A DNA stretch of 42,967 bases from a virus. Taxonomy: Duplodnaviria; Heunggongvirae; Uroviricota; Caudoviricetes. Below the pieces are notes generated by a model, which searched no databases, was not told the origin of the DNA, and saw only the letters and a list, made by a program, of their open reading frames with translations. The DNA is taken from positions 1 through 42,967 of IMG/VR virus record IMGVR_UViG_2563366803_000007; one strand, written 5' to 3'. Of the stretch, positions 269 to 42,967 are shown one piece after another. Each line of letters starts with the position of its first letter. Position 1 is the first letter of the stretch. Both the position numbers and the translations under genes were made by a program.

Positions 269-586
269 CTAAACAACCGCATTGTCCTGGCGCACATCGC
301 AGATAGTAAACGTCACTACACCGATGACAGTAACATCGTCCAGGGCCTCGCCCTCGATCGCTTCACCATCTACGGTAATCAGCGACTTTCCTCTCAGCGT
401 AGCAAGTTCAGTGCCGCCGCCGTGCTGGATCAGAACCTGACTACCTTGCTTTGGCTTCAGGGAGATATCCAGCACAACGTAACCACAAGATTGCTCGAAG
501 ACGAGCGTATTTGGACCAACATTGCAGATCGAGTTAACCGTTAATCGCTGTTCCGTGTAGTCCGTCGCGGGTGATGGAAAGCCCAT
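269..586 (-). CDS. UmuD'-like protein (105 aa) beginning at the position of the UmuD cleavage site; no SGDSM-type catalytic motif seen
   Basis: Translation starts MGFPSPATDYTEQR, matching the UmuD/MucA region GFPSPAADYVEQR; C-terminal DDVTVIGVVTFTI resembles the UmuD C-terminal strands; ATG overlaps upstream stop (TAATG) with GGGAGGG RBS. Confidence 0.5.
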   Translation of the reverse strand: MGFPSPATDYTEQRLTVNSICNVGPNTLVFEQSCGYVVLDISLKPKQGSQVLIQHGGGTELATLRGKSLITVDGEAIEGEALDDVTVIGVVTFTICDVRQDNAVV

Positions 587-825
587 TACAGAACCCTCCC
601 CATGTTGGCCATCATCCACAGCCGGTTTTCGCTATGGTCGGTGGTTTTGTCGATGAAATACGTTTGTTCCCGCGCGATCCAGGAGTTCGCCTCAACCTCG
701 GAAAAGTGGATGCCGTGCCGGCGCAGTGCGGTAACGAAGTCTCTGGTATGAAGGTACTGGAATCCCTTGGAGCTGCGCAAAATGGACTCGCGGAAAGCCG
801 CGGCGATGTCTGACTGTCGAAGCAT
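586..825 (-). CDS. Small basic hypothetical protein (79 aa), first gene of a LexA-box-controlled bicistron
   Basis: ATG at 823..825 preceded by GGAGGG RBS; LexA box about 20 bp upstream; stop overlaps start of the UmuD'-like gene. Confidence 0.5.
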   Translation of the reverse strand: MLRQSDIAAAFRESILRSSKGFQYLHTRDFVTALRRHGIHFSEVEANSWIAREQTYFIDKTTDHSENRLWMMANMGRVL

Positions 826-845
826 GACCTGCCCTCCGATAAACA

Positions 846-861
846 CTGTATTTATATACAG
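846..861 (-). promoter_or_regulatory. LexA (SOS) box CTGTATTTATATACAG overlapping the putative promoter of the 586..825 / 269..586 operon
   Basis: Matches CTGT-N8-ACAG; extended sequence ACTGTATTTATATACAGTA is close to the E. coli consensus TACTGTATATATATACAGTA. Confidence 0.6.
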
Positions 862-896: not shown

Positions 897-1658
897 TTAA
901 AGGACTGCCACCCCCCGATCTGACATGCGCGCTTTAACACGCGAGTAGATGCCGTCCAGATCAGATTGCGATTTCGCTGTCGCATGAATCCCATGTGATG
1001 CGTGTTCAATCGTAGCACTATAGAAATTGCTCCCCGCGTGGTAACAATCCCCGACTCCGTGATACTTTGTCGTCGTTGGCGCTGTATATGTCCCGGTAAC
1101 TGATACAACGTCAGAGCTTCCGATATAAATCAGCATGCCTGTAGTGCTCACAGCCAGAGCAACAAATATCCAGTCGCCATCAGAAACGCCTGTCGGCACT
1201 TTAGCAATACCGGAACTGAATCCCCTGACAGTGGATACCAGCTGTCCATTTGTTGGATTAATCCATAATGCTGCACCGCCGTTCGCTGCGGCACCGTCTG
1301 CGGTACCAAACAGGTAGCCACCTGTAGCCTTATATTGTACTACAGCCCAGTGAGTCCACGGGCCACCCACATCGGCAATATTGCTCACCAGTCCATATAA
1401 GCCGCCCACAACCGGCTTGAGGTAGTTTGTGCCATATGTCGGAGGATTGCCGGCACTGAGAGGCGTCAACGTCCTGCCATTAACCAGATCTATCAGACTG
1501 GAAGAATCCGGGCCAAATTCCCATTGACCAAGAGCATCGGATTCAGGAGCAGGGGTAGGCTGAGGAAATAGTGGTGTTAATTTTGATGTATCAACATACT
1601 CCGCTCCAGTAAATGGAACCGAGTAACTTAATTGCTGCAGTGTATAGGACATTACCAT
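897..1658 (-). CDS. Hypothetical protein, distal tail-fibre-associated (253 aa)
   Basis: Last gene of the late operon, overlaps the stop of the upstream spike gene; Gly/Thr/Ser-rich composition. Confidence 0.45.
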   Translation of the reverse strand: MVMSYTLQQLSYSVPFTGAEYVDTSKLTPLFPQPTPAPESDALGQWEFGPDSSSLIDLVNGRTLTPLSAGNPPTYGTNYLKPVVGGLYGLVSNIADVGGPWTHWAVVQYKATGGYLFGTADGAAANGGAALWINPTNGQLVSTVRGFSSGIAKVPTGVSDGDWIFVALAVSTTGMLIYIGSSDVVSVTGTYTAPTTTKYHGVGDCYHAGSNFYSATIEHASHGIHATAKSQSDLDGIYSRVKARMSDRGVAVL

Positions 1659-3376
1659 CCTCTCCTTATTACTTGTTCATACATCCAGTTTGCTAAGTGG
1701 GTCTGGAGTGCTGTACCCCAGTGGACGTTAGTATCATTGGCTGGGGTGTCGGCGGTCCTTAAGCTGCGGGGGACGATCCCTAATGAAACATCGGAAATAT
1801 CATCAGCGCTGGCGCTGGCATACTGAAAAGACCATGGCACACAATCCAGTACTAAATCCCCCCACTTGTCCTTCATCCAGACTGAAATTTCGCGCGAAAA
1901 ATTATTAGGCAATGTCCCTGTAACCTCTCCGGTAGCCACAACACCCGGCGTAATTGGACCACCTACTGGAGGAGTGACAAATAAAACTCTCTTTTCTTGC
2001 GTCAGCTGATAGTTATAAATGCGGGTTAATCTGTCTTTCAGATTTGCTACACGCTCAGAATAATTCGCTGATGTCAGGCCTGAAATGTCATTCCTGCCAA
2101 CCCATATCGTCATCAGATTAAAATTGAGGTCAGCAAAATCACGCTCAAAGGGTGAGCCAGGAGCGCAGTATACTGCAGAACCTGATGCTACCCTGGTAAA
2201 GGTAAATGTGCCGCCAGAAACCCTTGCAAATGCGCCATACACACCACATAGCCACCCGTTCATTGTCTGGTAGCCATTACTGGTTAGTGGCTGGCAATCT
2301 ACCAATTGACCGGTAGATGACAATATCTGGCATACTGTGACATTAACGGAGCCCGATGCAGGAATTGAGTTTCCCTCCACGGTTACCTGCGGAGGTTGAG
2401 CGCCAATTCTCGGCGCTATCATGGACGAATTCTGACCGGAAATTGCCTCTAAATTGAAAGTCCTGCCTGGCAAAAGCCCAGCCAGCGTCGTCCTCCATGC
2501 CGTAGCGCCATTTACCGTCCCCACAGATAAAGAGTCCCCAATGATAGTGAAATCTTTTGTAGGTGATATGTATGGAGAGTTTGCTCCGACTGGTTTCCCA
2601 TACGCCTTCAACTGCAGGTTTGCATGATCAAGGACCAGCAATTTTCGGCCTGCACTATCAACCTGCAAAACCTGTTCTGTTTGGTCAGTTGACGCATACT
2701 GGTACTGATCGGAGAATTTAGGTTGCAGAGTTGTATTAAGCGAACCGGAAGAAAGCATTTCAGTCCCGTAGGCTTTTATGACTTTTCCCGCATGATCTGC
2801 AACAATTAATTTTCTCCCTTCGCTATCAATTAATAAAACAGTCTCAGATTCACTATCTAATAATAGTCTTTTAAAATCAGAAAGCGCCTCAAATACATTA
2901 TCATTTGTATTGTATAGCTCTAAAAACACCGAGGAAATAAGTTGCTGCAAATATTCCTGAGACGGCATTTTTCGTCCGGTAGGCTGCAGCGTCCCGCCAA
3001 CGTTCATGACTTCGATTGCAAGCGCGCTGTCGTCCGGGCTGCGGTAATACGTGGTGCTCCCCGCCGGGATATTCGCGATGTCCGCCTGCGCCGCTGCCAG
3101 TGTCATATACTGGCGGCTGAGTGGAATCAGGTTCTGCCTGGTTTCCTCAACTACAGCATCCCTTTCTTCTTGCGATGTTTCAAAGTCTGCTTGCTGCTGC
3201 GTTAGCTGGTTGCCAGCCTTAACATTAACGCCATGCAAAGTATCTAACTGTTCGCCAGTGCGTGTGGTAATGGTTTCATCGCTGCTATTAACGAACTTAT
3301 CAATAGACTGCATATTATCCCATGCATCAAGCATTGATGCAGACGGCACAGGATTGCCGGTATCGTATTCACTCAT
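1652..3376 (-). CDS. Tail fibre/tail spike protein (574 aa) with GDSL/SGNH-hydrolase-like motif
   Basis: Motif TIIGDSLSVGT (GDS-L block) in the central region; position in the tail-fibre cluster; GGGG RBS before ATG. Confidence 0.55.
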   Translation of the reverse strand: MSEYDTGNPVPSASMLDAWDNMQSIDKFVNSSDETITTRTGEQLDTLHGVNVKAGNQLTQQQADFETSQEERDAVVEETRQNLIPLSRQYMTLAAAQADIANIPAGSTTYYRSPDDSALAIEVMNVGGTLQPTGRKMPSQEYLQQLISSVFLELYNTNDNVFEALSDFKRLLLDSESETVLLIDSEGRKLIVADHAGKVIKAYGTEMLSSGSLNTTLQPKFSDQYQYASTDQTEQVLQVDSAGRKLLVLDHANLQLKAYGKPVGANSPYISPTKDFTIIGDSLSVGTVNGATAWRTTLAGLLPGRTFNLEAISGQNSSMIAPRIGAQPPQVTVEGNSIPASGSVNVTVCQILSSTGQLVDCQPLTSNGYQTMNGWLCGVYGAFARVSGGTFTFTRVASGSAVYCAPGSPFERDFADLNFNLMTIWVGRNDISGLTSANYSERVANLKDRLTRIYNYQLTQEKRVLFVTPPVGGPITPGVVATGEVTGTLPNNFSREISVWMKDKWGDLVLDCVPWSFQYASASADDISDVSLGIVPRSLRTADTPANDTNVHWGTALQTHLANWMYEQVIRRGW

Positions 3377-3388
3377 GGTCGCCCCAAT

Positions 3389-3410
3389 AAAAAACCGACC
3401 ATAAGGTCAG
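3389..3410 (-). terminator. Putative rho-independent terminator between the 65-aa gene and the spike gene
   Basis: Minus-strand hairpin CTGACC-TTAT-GGTCGG followed by TTTTTT. Confidence 0.45.
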
Positions 3411-3434
3411 TTTGCTTTCTGGTAATTTAGTGAC

Positions 3435-3632
3435 TTAATTCTTGCTATTTATTTTTGAATATTCTTTATCATCGTAAAATAGCCCGTCTGCCTTGTTATA
3501 AAACATCCCTGGCTGGCAAAATACACTTTCAGGATATTCGATAAGTTCAGCACCATCATATTCATAACCGCTTTCCGCAATTATGATGTTTTTAACTATT
3601 CCACTTTCAATGACTGCGTAATTACCTGCCAT
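3435..3632 (-). CDS. Small acidic hypothetical protein (65 aa), possible fibre assembly factor
   Basis: ORF start overlaps stop of the upstream fibre gene; function unknown. Confidence 0.4.
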   Translation of the reverse strand: MAGNYAVIESGIVKNIIIAESGYEYDGAELIEYPESVFCQPGMFYNKADGLFYDDKEYSKINSKN

Positions 3633-4501
3633 TATGCGTACTCCTCAATGATGACATAGCCGTTAGCGCCCTTCCCTGATGCCCTGGCGATTGAGTCATA
3701 TGATGCGCCAGCACCACCTCCACCAGGGAAAAATCCATCATCACCGGATGAACTAACGTGTGGAAGGCCACCATAACTACTGTGCGATGCGCCACCTACA
3801 CCACCCAGGCTTACACCTGATCCTCCCTGTCCTCCCTGACCAGCCACTGAGAATATTGTCCCAACAGATGGAGCTCCCGGAATTCCGCCAGCAGAATTAC
3901 CAGCAGACTTTCCCCCCTTACCACCGCCAGCAGAGATACCCAACGCGGTAATGGTAGTGTCTCCCCCATCACCGCCATCCCCTGCATTCCCTGCTGCAAC
4001 TGCCGCGCCACCAGCGCCAATAACGATATTCGCCCCATTAATGGTGCTTACGTCATATAATCCCTCAACATATGCACCACCCGCCCCACTAGGTGCACCA
4101 GTCCCTGCGACGTCTGTTCCCTTACCCCCACCGCCTGCACCCCATGCTTTAATTCTGACTTTTTTAGTGCCAGCAGTTTTTACCCATGCTCCGCTAGCGG
4201 TAAAAACCTGAATGCGGAGCAGGCGTCCTTCTGCCTGATTATTAAGTGCGGACTTGAGAATATTTAGTAACGTGGCAATGTTCCCATTATCCAGGACATC
4301 GCTTCCTGTGCTATCCGCCATGAATTGTGCAAGGACGGCAGCAATTGTAGAGGATTGCCGTAGTGCTTTATTTACTTGTGCTGACGAGGCTTTGCCGGAA
4401 AGAAAACCAGATGCCAGTACAGATAGCGCTTCATAATCAGCCTGTGATAATACGTTTGCCCCGCTACCAGTAGCGAAGGGTTTAAAATCGTTAGTCGCCA
4501 T
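3632..4501 (-). CDS. Tail fibre protein with glycine-rich repeat region (289 aa from ATG at 4499..4501)
   Basis: N-terminus MATNDFKPFATGSGANVLSQADYEAL; long Gly-rich GAGGGGKG/GGDGGDGG tracts; TAATG overlap with upstream gene. Confidence 0.55.
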   Translation of the reverse strand: MATNDFKPFATGSGANVLSQADYEALSVLASGFLSGKASSAQVNKALRQSSTIAAVLAQFMADSTGSDVLDNGNIATLLNILKSALNNQAEGRLLRIQVFTASGAWVKTAGTKKVRIKAWGAGGGGKGTDVAGTGAPSGAGGAYVEGLYDVSTINGANIVIGAGGAAVAAGNAGDGGDGGDTTITALGISAGGGKGGKSAGNSAGGIPGAPSVGTIFSVAGQGGQGGSGVSLGGVGGASHSSYGGLPHVSSSGDDGFFPGGGGAGASYDSIARASGKGANGYVIIEEYA

Positions 4502-5274
4502 TAAAATCTCTCTCCCCATGACCCGCGGTCGAAGCCAGCGATATAGTCATTTTCGATATCGAAGCCAAAAAACTGATAACCATCACTGACGGTCTCTATT
4601 TCACGGACACGAACCCCTGCGGCTTTAACCGTCATATAACCGTTCCGAATCGCCCACCATAGCTCGCTGTTAACCTGGTCAATCGGGTTAATGTCATAGC
4701 GCGATGGTACGTAACCTGCCGGTAATGCGATAAAGGGGCCTTTATTGACGGCGCTATCCAGAATTAACCGGTCTATTTCACTTAGAGCTACCGATGGGTC
4801 ACCGAGTATCCAGATAGAAATCGACATATCCTGGTTGTCGACAATAGCCATGCGGATCCCAGACCCGGCAAGGGCGGCATCAAGAATTGAAGGCAGCGAA
4901 TCGTTCTGACCATCCCAGTTGTTTATCGCCACTTTCACCTTCAGCATTAGCCGATATATTTCATCGCTTAGATCGATAAAACCGTCGTTTGGGTCATATG
5001 GTCCCTGCCAGACCCCCTGATCCCAGCCAACCCGTTCGGTGTCCCACGAAAAATAAATCCCGGTTACCGGTGTAGCCACGCGACGGGAACGACCAACCCA
5101 TTCGCCCACAACGTCGAGTTGCACGCCAATGGCGGTATCAATATCAAAATCGGGTATTAGCCGTGACATGGCATCGGAAACATCGCTCAGTGGCCTGGTG
5201 GACAGGTCAACGTGTGCAAAGAACTTTGGTTTACCGGCGTGGTAGTTGGTTATGCGGTCAGTGTATCTGCTCAT
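4501..5274 (-). CDS. Tail/baseplate protein (257 aa)
   Basis: Translationally coupled between baseplate J-like gene and tail fibre. Confidence 0.5.
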   Translation of the reverse strand: MSRYTDRITNYHAGKPKFFAHVDLSTRPLSDVSDAMSRLIPDFDIDTAIGVQLDVVGEWVGRSRRVATPVTGIYFSWDTERVGWDQGVWQGPYDPNDGFIDLSDEIYRLMLKVKVAINNWDGQNDSLPSILDAALAGSGIRMAIVDNQDMSISIWILGDPSVALSEIDRLILDSAVNKGPFIALPAGYVPSRYDINPIDQVNSELWWAIRNGYMTVKAAGVRVREIETVSDGYQFFGFDIENDYIAGFDRGSWGERF

Positions 5275-6467
5275 GAGACCACCAGATTAATATTGCTGAC
5301 GGCGCAGGATGCTGACTGGTCAAAGGCAATATCCACGTTTGCCGCGGCTACGCCACCGGCAGACGTCCCGATCAGCAACTCGGTAATGTCGTAATACCTG
5401 GCATTACCACCACTGACAACACCAAGGTTAGCCGGTGAGTAAACGCGACTGAGAAGAACGCTGGCGCCGATTGCCAGTGAGTTAATGTAGGCAGATACAG
5501 CCGCCTTTATCTCTTCGCCGACCTGGGATGTGTAGCCCGTAAGGGGTTCGATAGTGATTTTGACGTAAATGGGTACATCGACCGGCCTTGAAAAACCTAC
5601 CGGGTGAGGGTTTCCGTACTTATCAGGCACAACAATCACCGTACTACCGTAGGGTGTTACGCCCTGCCCTTTCACACCACGAATGCTGTTTGCAATGACC
5701 GTCGCATCACCACCTTCTACAATGGCGGCGATTGAGTGCGGCGGCAGGCCATTTGCATCAGTGTTATCTGTATCGTTCTCATACAGCTTGTGACGGGTTA
5801 CGCCGCTGATATTTGCTATCGCACCATCTACCGCCTCAAACGGCGTCAGAGATGGTAAAGCAACGCTCTGTGATTGCCGGACACGCAATTCAGCATTTGT
5901 TTCGGCAGCAACGCCAACGGTAGCCGCTTGAGGGTTAGTTACTGATACCCAGCCACGTGTCGGGGTGTTTATCTTATTGACTGACCCGGCAGGGGCCGCC
6001 ACAGCGCCAGCAACAGAACACGTCGCTGTAGCAATAACCGTCCCATCAATACCAATTGTCACCTGAGCAGGAAGATTCCAGATGATGCCGTTGGCATCTT
6101 TCACAGAGCCGTTTGTGATTAACGTTCCGGCCTCACCTTCGATCAGCTCATCGACCGTAGAATTTGTCGCAGCCCGGCGAGCGATGCCGTTAATTTTGAC
6201 GTTACTGGTTAATGCATCGTCCAGCGCCGTCGACGGAGAAAATGACCGGTAAACAGAAATAGCCGTGTTGTTGGCATCATGAATGGCCAGAGCCACCAGA
6301 GCGACCATCTGGCCGTCTTTGCTGTCCGGGTCGAGATAGGCATCACTGCCATAAATCTGCTGAAAATAGCTAATCAGGGTGCTGAGTATCGTCTGATAAT
6401 CAGGCGCACTTATCCCCTCAGCGGTTACCGTTGCCGATAAGCCGAGTGTGTCGAGGTCCAGAGCCAT
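5271..6467 (-). CDS. Baseplate J-like protein (398 aa)
   Basis: Size and position in the baseplate cluster; call from memory of the family. Confidence 0.55.
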   Translation of the reverse strand: MALDLDTLGLSATVTAEGISAPDYQTILSTLISYFQQIYGSDAYLDPDSKDGQMVALVALAIHDANNTAISVYRSFSPSTALDDALTSNVKINGIARRAATNSTVDELIEGEAGTLITNGSVKDANGIIWNLPAQVTIGIDGTVIATATCSVAGAVAAPAGSVNKINTPTRGWVSVTNPQAATVGVAAETNAELRVRQSQSVALPSLTPFEAVDGAIANISGVTRHKLYENDTDNTDANGLPPHSIAAIVEGGDATVIANSIRGVKGQGVTPYGSTVIVVPDKYGNPHPVGFSRPVDVPIYVKITIEPLTGYTSQVGEEIKAAVSAYINSLAIGASVLLSRVYSPANLGVVSGGNARYYDITELLIGTSAGGVAAANVDIAFDQSASCAVSNINLVVS

Positions 6468-26626: not shown

Positions 26627-26702
26627 TGGTGCTGGTTAACGGACTTGAACCGCTACCCATTCGCTTACAAGGCGACTGCTCTACCATTGGAGCTAAACCA
26701 GC
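26627..26702 (-). tRNA. tRNA-Thr (anticodon UGU), phage-encoded
   Basis: Manual cloverleaf: 7-bp acceptor stem GCTGGTT/AACCAGC, D stem GCTC/GAGC, anticodon loop CTTGTAA, T loop TTCAAGT, 3' ACCA encoded. Confidence 0.6.
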
Positions 26703-26707
26703 ATATT

Positions 26708-26782
26708 TGGCGGGACAGCGTGGACTCGAACCACGATAAGAAGGTTAACAGCCTTCCGTAATGACCTTTATACGACTGACCC
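26708..26782 (-). tRNA. tRNA-Asn-like (anticodon GUU), possibly degenerate
   Basis: Manual cloverleaf: anticodon stem GAAGG/CCTTC, loop CTGTTAA, T arm CGTGG-TTCGAGT-CCACG, CCA encoded; one mismatch each in acceptor and D stems. Confidence 0.45.
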
Positions 26783-41707: not shown

Positions 41708-42967
41708 ATGAGTAAAGAATCATACCCAACGGGCGTTGAGAACCACGGAAAGTCACTCCGCATATGGTTCATTTTTAAAGGTAAGCGTGTCAGGGAAAAC
41801 CTCGGTGTCCCTGACACCGCTAAAAACAGGAAGGTGGCCGGGGAGCTGAGAACGTCAGTTTGTTTCGCTATCCGCATGGGGACCTTTGACTATGCGGCCC
41901 AATTCCCCAACTCGCCAAATCTGAAAACTTTCGGCATCGGGAAGAAAGATATCACCGTAAAAGATCTGTCTGAAAAATGGCTTGAGCTTAAACGGATGGA
42001 GATCTGCGCTAATGCCATAAACAGGTATGAATCGGTGGTGAGAAGCATGCTGCCGAGGGTTGGCGCGAATAAGCTGGTTTCGTCTGTGACAAGAGAAGAG
42101 CTTCTCTATATCAGGAAGGATATGCTGGCGGGGGATAAAGGGTTGAGTGTGGTGACGGTAAACTACTACATGACCACGATCGCGGGTATGTTTCAGTTCG
42201 CTGTTGATAATGGCTATGTGAGTGAAAACCCGTTTAACGGCATCAAGCCGCTAAAGAGGGCCAGGATAGAACCAGATCCGCTCACACGTGATGAATTCGT
42301 TCGCTTCATAGATGCCTGCAAGCATCAGCAAACGAAAAACCTGTGGTCAATTGCGGTATACACAGGATTACGTCACGGTGAGTTGGTATCCCTCGCATGG
42401 GAAGACATAGATCTGAAAACTGGAACGATGACCATACGCCGGAATTATACGAAACTCGGTGATTTCACTCTACCAAAAACCGAAGCCGGTACCGACAGGG
42501 TCGTTCACCTGATCAAGCCAGCCATTGACGCTTTGAGGAACCAGGCGGAAATGACCAGGTTAGGCAGGCAGTATCAGGTTGAGGTACAACTGCGGGAGTA
42601 TGGCCGAACGGTCATTCACGACTGTACATTTGTGTTCAATCCTCAGTTGGTTAAAAAAAGTGGCAGCGTAGGTTACCTGTACAAAGCCGATTCAGTTGGT
42701 GACTCATGGGATGCGGCGCTTAAACGGTCAGGTTTAAGGCACCGCAAGGCGTATCAGTCGAGACACACTTACGCCTGCTGGTCGCTGTCTGCCGGGGCCA
42801 ATCCGAGTTTCATTGCCAGCCAGATGGGACACTCCAGCGCCCAGATGGTTTTCAATGTTTACGGCGCCTGGATGGCCGACAGCAGCAGCGATCAGATTGC
42901 TATGTTGAACCAGAAATTATCGGACTTTGCCCCATCCATGCCCCACGGCATGGCGATAGGAATATGA
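41708..42967 (+). CDS. int: Tyrosine integrase (Rac IntR-like family, 419 aa)
   Basis: C-terminal catalytic region with YTGLRHGE, HTYACWSLSAGANPSFIASQMGHSSAQMVFNVY blocks; strong resemblance to Rac IntR from memory. Confidence 0.9.
   Translation: MSKESYPTGVENHGKSLRIWFIFKGKRVRENLGVPDTAKNRKVAGELRTSVCFAIRMGTFDYAAQFPNSPNLKTFGIGKKDITVKDLSEKWLELKRMEICANAINRYESVVRSMLPRVGANKLVSSVTREELLYIRKDMLAGDKGLSVVTVNYYMTTIAGMFQFAVDNGYVSENPFNGIKPLKRARIEPDPLTRDEFVRFIDACKHQQTKNLWSIAVYTGLRHGELVSLAWEDIDLKTGTMTIRRNYTKLGDFTLPKTEAGTDRVVHLIKPAIDALRNQAEMTRLGRQYQVEVQLREYGRTVIHDCTFVFNPQLVKKSGSVGYLYKADSVGDSWDAALKRSGLRHRKAYQSRHTYACWSLSAGANPSFIASQMGHSSAQMVFNVYGAWMADSSSDQIAMLNQKLSDFAPSMPHGMAIGI

Follow-up and report, generated by a model that had tools for sequence, protein, structure and literature searches.

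The window, i.e. the whole stretch of 42,967 nucleotides of tailed-virus (Caudoviricetes) DNA that was analyzed, contains on its minus strand a 574-aa ORF with an ATG start (1652..3376), which encodes a putative tail-fibre/receptor-binding protein with a C-terminal SGNH esterase domain. A fibre gene of this size had been listed, with its strand left out, in a preliminary description of this DNA, and it is indeed present. The protein matches the PHROG tail-fibre families, and its best matches at the level of both DNA and protein come from Klebsiella prophages and phages. Upstream of it lie, in this order, the genes for baseplate J, a DUF2612/wedge protein, a Gly-rich fibre and a 65-aa protein (phrog_18617; 3435..3632, minus strand); in all relatives the fibre gene is contiguous and co-oriented with the baseplate and fibre genes. 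The 65-aa gene, situated between the Gly-rich fibre gene and a hairpin, is kept in P18-100, L002 and L011 and is a member of the conserved upstream block, outside the swapped part. An integrase is found within the window at 41708..42967, and the fibre gene lies near the prophage end. The arrangement corresponds to the layout of Klebsiella prophage SGNH fibres, i.e. a gene of the tail module whose product possesses an N-terminal fibre adaptor and a C-terminal SGNH domain. A 105-aa ORF at 269..586 was considered as UmuD-like and dropped, as Pfam gave no support.

The N-terminal part of the protein (2951..3376, minus strand) is composed of an anchor (aa 1–79) and a conserved connector (aa 80–142, RQNLIPLSRQY...PTGRKMPSQ), and is common to fibres with other tips. 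Residues 1–141 exhibit 92% amino acid identity to the fibres of the phages P18-100, P12620-1 and PDP110P2, the C-termini of which are unrelated to that of the query, while the connector is kept across differing N-termini. More than 2,000 proteins match the fibre, chiefly over the anchor and connector, and the N-terminal 140 aa correspond to a tail-fibre adaptor common to hundreds of fibre proteins. In the following shaft region (aa 143–270; 2567..2950, minus strand) a 29-aa repeat occurs twice (aa 176–204 at 2765..2851 and aa 232–260 at 2597..2683, both on the minus strand), and its copies are 59% identical to each other (E=2e-11). Relatives of 611–671 aa (P0003, P0008, P0016) possess an additional 62-aa segment with one more similar motif.

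The C-terminal domain (aa 271–574; 1655..2566, minus strand) is an SGNH hydrolase domain of the type represented by the 'petal' of gp20, the tailspike of Salmonella phage epsilon15, which is its closest relative with a characterized function. For the query alone, Pfam reported PF00657 below the threshold (E=0.03, 14.9 bits vs the cut-off of 23.6) and NCBIfam reported no match; as neither result is significant, membership in the family was established via profile and structure comparisons. The single query sequence matched the epsilon15 petal structure with E=0.056 only, and a profile of 7 family members matched it (9sij in the PDB) with E=4e-33, over the profile positions 22–302 of 304. The entries 9sij and 9sim were assigned to gp20(734–1070) and gp20(248–1070), respectively, from chain lengths and residue arithmetic. 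For P0001, a protein 97% identical to the query, a match to PF13472 had been precomputed. The predicted domain exhibits a three-layer α/β/α fold with a central parallel sheet, into which a β-barrel subdomain (aa ~327–412; 2141..2398, minus strand) is inserted between the SGNH blocks II and III. In the structure model the barrel strands occupy the model residues 82–164, with seven strands predicted in the stretch that separates G314 from N429, and the region aligns to the β-barrel of epsilon15 gp20 (residues 826–906), including the motif IPASGSV (aa 338–344), in which I, P, S and G are invariant in the family. Foldseek searches of the PDB, with a library that may predate the release of 9sij, did not list this entry; structural matches include Ape1 (8gld and 4k3u), PlaA (8a24) and TesA (1ivn). 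With the C-terminal domain alone, a word-indexed search returned 12 matches, and a profile query and an exhaustive search of representatives were needed, the latter of which revealed 1,026 representatives at E<=1e-3. The domain search and the structure prediction that had been proposed as a check recover the SGNH fold, Pfam by itself falling short of significance, and the SGNH esterase domain postulated in the preliminary description is borne out by the fold, the profile homology and the Ser/Gly/Asn/His signature, from which the activity is predicted.

The peptide TIIGDSLSVGT, named in the same description, is found at aa 277–287 (2516..2548), and its GDSL is no chance tetrapeptide, since block I is practically invariant across 251 aligned homologues (G280 in 251/251). 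The predicted nucleophile, Ser282 of block I (GDSL, aa 280–283; 2531..2533), is a serine in 249 of the 251 sequences and aligns to S787 of epsilon15. The two oxyanion-hole residues are Gly314 of block II (2435..2437; G in 224/251, aligned to G813) and Asn429 of block III (GRND, aa 427–430; 2090..2092; N in 250/251, aligned to N937). The predicted general base, His552, is present in all 251 homologues, aligns to H1038 and is located just ahead of the C-terminal helix of the model; all these codons are on the minus strand, and the conservation of the four residues ranges from 89 to 100%. Block V, ADTPANDTNVH (aa 542–552; 1721..1753, minus strand), carries a clade-specific insertion of 7 aa and deviates from the canonical DxxH. 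The His-3 position, which aligns to D1035 of epsilon15, is occupied by D in 221/251 family members and by T (Thr549) in 18/18 sequences of the query clade, while an Asp (Asp548) is found at His-4, after the insertion; Asp548 and Asp543 are the candidate substitutes for the missing acid. Within the domain core, the model is least confident in this loop (pLDDT about 73). It was stated beforehand that a lack of conserved catalytic residues would speak against the enzyme: the Ser and the His are conserved, and the canonical Asp is replaced by Thr in the clade. Purifying selection acts strongly on the unusual loop of block V: over the last 180 codons, loop included, the window and L003 differ with pN 0.039 and pS 0.755 (proportions are given, as saturation of synonymous sites makes dS not estimable).

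Does the tip only bind, without catalysis? Such a reading would accommodate the Thr at His-3 and the 7-aa insertion shared by the whole clade, purifying selection is expected for a binding module too, and in epsilon15 the ester of the bound sugar lies 12 Å from the Ser and the turnover is slow (bioRxiv 10.64898/2026.07.31.742079). However, the retention of the nucleophile, both oxyanion-hole residues and the His would be needless for a pure lectin, and an Asp is available one position off. Moreover, the Thr does not refute activity, since active SGNH hydrolases with a Ser-His dyad, namely the CE2 enzymes and SsEst, are documented, and the superfamily still includes enzymes of the dyad type (PMC9487903). 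We consider a tip devoid of catalysis rather improbable. Or perhaps the esterase acts on another substrate than acetyl groups of the capsule or O-antigen, e.g. O-acetylated peptidoglycan or an outer-membrane lipid ester, and aids penetration instead of recognition? SGNH folds do include peptidoglycan O-acetylesterases and lysophospholipases, and Ape1, PlaA and TesA are among the structural matches listed above; nonetheless, we find this highly improbable. We regard it as very probable that the fibre tip removes acetyl groups enzymatically from sugars of the host surface. Both the placement of the protein as a 'distal' fibre, a term of the preliminary description, and the choice of capsule or O-antigen as its substrate are what we infer.

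The gene of the 253-aa protein (phrog_4390; 897..1658, minus strand) follows the fibre gene, as claimed before, and overlaps its stop by 7 nt. The PHROG family is its only match: comparisons with Pfam, NCBIfam, PADLOC and the PDB, using the protein alone or a 5-sequence profile, revealed no match, and a profile search of the genome contigs with the family alignment found nothing. An AF2 model built from the sequence alone was too poor to be used (pLDDT 39.9); on reading the sequence, our impression is that the protein may resemble a jelly roll of the LamG/concanavalin type. Its distant homologues come after SASA-like esterase fibres. In a GpJ-type prophage, a 90%-identical esterase domain is followed by a 91%-identical copy of the 253-aa gene, the pair being located downstream of a GpJ-like gene in this other type of prophage. 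The suggestion that the locus is an exchangeable cassette agrees well with both this finding and the occurrence of the N-terminal ~140 aa with many other C-termini. In our view, the esterase part forms one unit with the 253-aa gene that overlaps it, and this pair has been grafted onto different tail adaptors. It is conceivable, if doubtful, that the clade both works with a re-built catalytic center (either a Ser-His dyad or a triad whose acid has moved to the enlarged block V loop) and needs the 253-aa protein as a dedicated partner, which would assist folding or attachment or else be a second subunit with lectin-like specificity. If true, 'esterase tip + partner' would be a portable two-gene receptor module for tails of both the baseplate type and the lambda-GpJ type.

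The fibre gene is preceded by a hairpin with a T-run that resembles an intrinsic terminator (3392..3413, minus strand), located in the gap that separates it from the 65-aa gene. This element, too, had been noted earlier, and it is present at 3413..3392, with a 9-bp stem (AAACUGACC/GGUCGGUUU; 4 G-C pairs), the loop UUAU and then UUUAUU, its end being 15 nt ahead of the ATG. The folding energy of the 58-nt intergenic RNA is -18 kcal/mol (z=-3.29 vs shuffles). P18-100 exhibits at the same position a hairpin with a different stem (AACCGGC/GCCGGUU) and U7, so the structure is kept with a changed stem in this one independent comparison. A scan of the 58-nt gap detected no promoter-like site. The hairpin with its T-run is probably a leaky terminator or an RNA-end structure that sets the dosage of the fibre genes. 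The terminator-like hairpin between the fibre gene and the tail operon and the proximity of the gene to the prophage end could also be taken as signs of an independent transcription unit for a non-virion enzyme of lysogenic conversion, which would remodel the surface polysaccharide of its own host and exclude other phages, but this is hardly credible given the gap free of promoter-like sites, a protein that begins straight with the adaptor found in hundreds of fibres, and a gene that in all relatives stays contiguous and co-oriented with the baseplate and fibre genes.

Our preferred reading, which we regard as likely, is that the gene specifies a receptor-binding tail fibre of the virion, built of an adaptor, a shaft and an SGNH carbohydrate esterase tip, and that the phage is a temperate one of Klebsiella whose tail is of the baseplate type. 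According to this tail-fibre model, the adaptor (aa 1–142) would dock the fibre to the tail, with aa 143–270 serving as a short shaft with repeats. By homology, His552 would activate Ser282 for the attack on an O-acetyl ester, Gly314 and Asn429 would stabilize the oxyanion, and acetate would be released. The acid of the triad would be non-canonical, with Asp548 at His-4 of the enlarged loop taking this role, or else a Ser-His dyad would suffice. Deacetylation may result in specific, reversible recognition and may also loosen the polysaccharide layer, giving the phage access to the membrane. The biological weight of the esterase activity is uncertain, as the epsilon15 enzyme works slowly and infection apparently does not require it (bioRxiv 10.64898/2026.07.31.742079).

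The fibre is a well-supported but ordinary case of a class that is already published, given the known high frequency of SGNH fibres in Klebsiella prophages. The conceptual gain is little; what is gained is a clear tie between the fibres of Klebsiella prophages and the solved epsilon15 petal structure. Current opinion regards esterase fibres as a main route of capsule recognition by temperate Klebsiella phages, alternative to depolymerases, and if so, each clade is of potential use in typing capsules, in host-range engineering and in relating O-acetylation to phage sensitivity and vaccine epitopes. The natural variant of block V could reveal to what extent such enzymes can do without the acid of the triad, and the recurrent partner gene, whose 253-aa product has no assigned function, is worth attention.

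Among the known systems, the epsilon15 gp20 petal (aa 734–1070) removes the 6-O-acetyl group from the O-antigen galactose, and its S787A and H1038A variants lose activity (bioRxiv 10.64898/2026.07.31.742079). It shares with the query the SGNH α/β fold, the β-barrel (six-stranded) between blocks II and III, the motifs IPASGSV, FTR and PRSLR, the C-terminal position of the module in a receptor-binding protein and the aligned S, G, N and H residues. However, the identity to the query is only ~24%, epsilon15 exhibits GHSF and the canonical DNLH where the query exhibits GDSL and DTNVH with the 7-aa insertion, and the petal hangs off the β-helix endorhamnosidase spike of a podovirus, whereas in the query, from a prophage with baseplate genes, the fibre is short and the SGNH domain is its sole recognizable enzymatic domain. 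In prophages of Klebsiella pneumoniae, tail fibres with an SGNH domain are widespread (Otwinowska et al., PLoS Biol 2026, PMC13123978; also Kolupaeva et al. 2025, PMC12115436), and two of them, 164_08-KL2 and 174_38-KL55, hydrolyse pNPA (PMC13123978). The host genus, the temperate phages, the C-terminal SGNH domain and the proposed deacetylation of the capsule are the same as for the query, which differs in its non-canonical block V; the query peptides were absent from those supplements of PMC13123978 that were searched. G7C gp63.1, a tailspike of an E. coli phage, is described as an O-antigen deacetylase (Prokhorov et al. 2017, cited by both PMC13123978 and bioRxiv 10.64898/2026.07.31.742079); in these accounts it, too, is a receptor-binding protein of the virion that carries an SGNH esterase domain, and O-antigen deacetylation is its recognition step. 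The top matches of the query, by sequence or by structure, did not include it, which suggests a more distant SGNH branch. The petal-type C-terminal module is also found in minor tail or tail fibre proteins of actinophages (Arthrobacter GurgleFerb and Arcadia, Gordonia Patos, Rhodococcus ReqiPoco6, Clavibacter CMP1), with Foldseek E from 4e-24 to 1e-18, TM about 0.7 and 26–34% identity in tblastn. These proteins differ from the query in their Gram-positive hosts and unrelated N-terminal parts, and we found no characterized one among them. The CE2 esterases and the Streptomyces scabies esterase, finally, have other accessory domains and no specific sequence relationship to the query, but they are active SGNH enzymes with the block V Asp absent or displaced (PMC9487903), and as such provide a precedent for its block V.

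The locus lies at that end of a Klebsiella prophage which encodes the tail fibres: its closest matches, in DNA and protein alike, are Klebsiella prophages and temperate phages, and the same gene order recurs in L011, a contig with an identical protein, where it is followed by the host genes for isochorismatase and aspS. All features named in the preliminary description were found, i.e. the 574-aa ORF with the TIIGDSLSVGT peptide, the hairpin with a T-run and the adjoining 253-aa gene, with the minus strand as the sole addition. The fibre gene (1652..3376, ATG start; block I peptide, aa 277–287, at 2516..2548) is preceded on the same strand by genes for a baseplate-J-like protein (5271..6467), a DUF2612/wedge protein (4501..5274; PF11041, E = 8.5e-46) and a glycine-rich fibre (3632..4519; PF21722). 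Between the two fibre genes lies a 65-aa gene (3435..3632, minus strand; phrog_18617, function unassigned), which is kept in phage P18-100 and in the related loci L002 and L011 whatever tip the fibre carries. The window ends with a tyrosine integrase (41708..42967), and inside the prophage two tRNA genes, for Thr-TGT and Asn-GTT, stand side by side (26627..26782, minus strand). After the 253-aa gene the prophage end holds two small ORFs (269–846, minus strand; 79 and 105 aa in the gene calls of L011), neither with a Pfam or PADLOC match; the longer one begins with MGFPSPATDY.

The Pfam search with the fibre sequence alone gave a sub-threshold match to PF00657 (E = 0.03). An exhaustive HMMER search with aa 254–574 (E ≤ 1e-3) matched 1,026 cluster representatives, nearly all of which carry the domain at the C-terminus of proteins of 400–900 aa. 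In the alignment of 251 full-domain homologues, the block I residues Gly280 and Ser282 (the predicted nucleophile) are conserved in 251 and 249 sequences, respectively, Gly314 of block II in 224, Asn429 of block III (GRND) in 250 and His552 of block V in all 251. In a structure search of viral models, minor tail or tail fibre proteins from phages of Arthrobacter, Gordonia, Rhodococcus, Clavibacter and Bacillus were seen to end in this module (E as low as 4e-24, TM about 0.7). A seven-sequence family profile matched, over nearly the entire domain, two PDB entries named "Tail spike protein" (9sij, E = 4e-33; 9sim, E = 2.6e-32). These were identified as Salmonella phage epsilon15 gp20(734–1070) and gp20(248–1070), since the chains comprise 371 and 857 aa and the catalytic positions 88 and 339 correspond to S787 and H1038 once a tag of 34 residues is allowed for; gp20 of NC_004775, aligned directly, gives the same assignment. 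The C-terminal "petal" of epsilon15 gp20 consists of an SGNH α/β subdomain, with residues S787, G813, N937 and H1038 and the triad S787-D1035-H1038, and a six-stranded β-barrel (residues 826–906); by NMR, it strips O-antigen galactose of its 6-O-acetyl group, and the S787A and H1038A substitutions abolish this activity (bioRxiv 10.64898/2026.07.31.742079). Ser282, Gly314, Asn429 and His552 align with S787, G813, N937 and H1038, and the strands predicted between blocks II and III (aa ~327–412, with the invariant IPASGSV) correspond to the β-barrel. The original SGNH/GDSL reading is supported: where Pfam alone is unconvincing, three independent lines settle the assignment of the C-terminal domain to the SGNH esterases.

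Of the catalytic Ser-His-Asp residues, Ser and His are conserved, but the canonical Asp is replaced. The family version of block V is D-x-x-H, with Asp three residues before the His in 221 of the 251 homologues; this position is Thr549 in our fibre and in 17 further members of its clade, with Asp548 one residue upstream and Asp543 farther back. Block V reads RTADTPANDTNVHW, as against RIDGVHW or RTDSVHW in close relatives, and its segment ADTPANDTNVH (aa 542–552, window 1721–1753, minus strand) holds a clade-specific 7-aa insertion; within the domain core of the predicted model, confidence is lowest in this loop (pLDDT about 73). Decay of the esterase is argued against by a comparison of the last 180 codons with the copy in the related locus L003, in which synonymous sites are saturated (pS 0.755, i.e. 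75% of synonymous sites) while only 3.9% of non-synonymous sites differ (pN 0.039) and the block V loop is identical, and by documented SGNH enzymes, the CE2 esterases and a Streptomyces scabies esterase, that are active without a functional block V Asp (PMC9487903). The main rival explanation, a pseudo-enzyme that only binds, is improbable, and a virion receptor-binding O-acetyl esterase fibre is the best and a probable explanation.

The first 142 residues of the fibre (window 2951–3376, minus strand) are an adaptor. Residues 1–141 share 92% identity with fibres of the Klebsiella phages P18-100, P12620-1 and PDP110P2, the remainders of which are unrelated (no Pfam domain was found in the 1,007-aa P18-100 fibre), and the DNA likeness to P18-100 ends at window ~2957, i.e. 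codon ~140. Over 2,000 proteins in the database are similar chiefly to this part and bear C-termini as different as PF13472 SGNH, PF03629 SASA, PF13229 β-helix and PF08757 CotH. Its connector (aa 80–142, RQNLIPLSRQY...PTGRKMPSQ), common to proteins that differ at the extreme N-terminus, is likely to be a recombination joint. Some adaptor-sharing fibres (P0017, P0098, P0106; KPP5665-2, ST13-OXA48phi12.5) are publicly labelled 'flagellar biosynthesis, cell-distal portion of basal-body rod', which looks like a propagated mis-annotation. The shaft (aa 143–270) contains two copies, 59% identical, of a 29-aa repeat, E[TQ]VLxxDSxGRKLxVxDHAxxxxKAYG (aa 176–204, 2765–2851; aa 232–260, 2597–2683; minus strand); relatives of 611–671 aa have a 62-aa insertion that includes one more motif of this kind, so the length of the shaft changes with the number of repeats.

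The proposal that the region is an exchangeable host-range cassette gained support from two loci. In the homologue P0013, a C-terminal domain with 90% identity to ours stands behind a different N-terminus; its gene directly follows a lambda-like tail module (a 1,024-aa GpJ-like gene, PF24801, and DUF1833) and is itself followed by a 251-aa gene 91% identical to the 253-aa gene. The downstream gene has thus accompanied the esterase tip in its transfer between two kinds of tail. In P18-100, with the same adaptor and another tip, the downstream gene is unrelated. These comparisons also place the left cassette boundary within the fibre coding sequence, near codon 140, rather than at the hairpin. 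The lambda-like prophage also encodes, convergently and directly after the 251-aa gene, another large protein with an SGNH match (PF13472; 731 or 866 aa; L003 6797–8994; L004 2882–5482; minus strand), which gives this prophage a pair of esterase receptor-binding proteins.

The hairpin itself (3413..3392, minus strand; 9-bp stem AAACUGACC/GGUCGGUUU, loop UUAU, then UUUAUU) ends 15 nt upstream of the fibre ATG in a 58-nt intergenic RNA (−18 kcal/mol, z = −3.29 against dinucleotide shuffles). It is part of a conserved upstream block, identical in L002 and L011; P18-100 has another stem at the same position (AACCGGC/GCCGGUU with U7), i.e. the structure is kept while the sequence has changed, and in the GpJ context a hairpin with a U-run likewise precedes the esterase fibre gene. 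Since no promoter-like site was found in the 58-nt gap, expression of the fibre gene probably depends on read-through. Most economically, the hairpin would act as a leaky terminator, or would stabilise transcript 3' ends, and in this way set the expression level of the last tail genes.

The 253-aa gene (897..1658, minus strand) overlaps the fibre stop by 7 nt. Its product matches solely phrog_4390 (function unassigned), with no match in Pfam, NCBIfam, PADLOC or the PDB; the single-sequence AF2 model has a pLDDT of 39.9, and by eye the protein resembles a LamG-type jelly roll. Distant homologues (25–31% identity) occur in ten further loci, some redundant with one another (KPP5665-2, ST13-OXA48phi12.5 and eight IMG/VR contigs); homologous genes lie at L003 5650–6405, L007 4504–5262 and L008 4411–5187, and also in L013–L017 and L019. 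Wherever the upstream ORF of a further locus is readable, the homologue stands immediately 3' of an esterase-type fibre gene of 612–870 aa. Fibres there that are not of the petal type show the pattern GQSL...DG[VT]H, most with a SASA (sialate-O-acetylesterase) Pfam match just below threshold (23.3–24.6 vs 24.8 bits). The SGNH fibre P0024 in L002 is followed by no such gene. As a lead from a small sample, the 253-aa protein may work as a partner specific to esterase fibres.

The class of esterase fibres is established, and our fibre is of this recognised type. The classical esterase tailspike is gp63.1 of phage G7C; Otwinowska et al. (PMC13123978) found SGNH domains to be prevalent in tail fibres of Klebsiella prophages, associated them with K-loci by GWAS and observed pNPA hydrolysis by two such fibres, and Kolupaeva et al. 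(PMC12115436) reported the same prevalence of these domains. An NCBI protein 97% identical to ours, named hypothetical protein, already carries a precomputed PF13472 match. Relative to the literature compared, what appears to be new is the recurrent 253-aa gene, with its role as partner a lead, the conserved non-canonical block V and the explicit homology of the Klebsiella clade to the epsilon15 petal.
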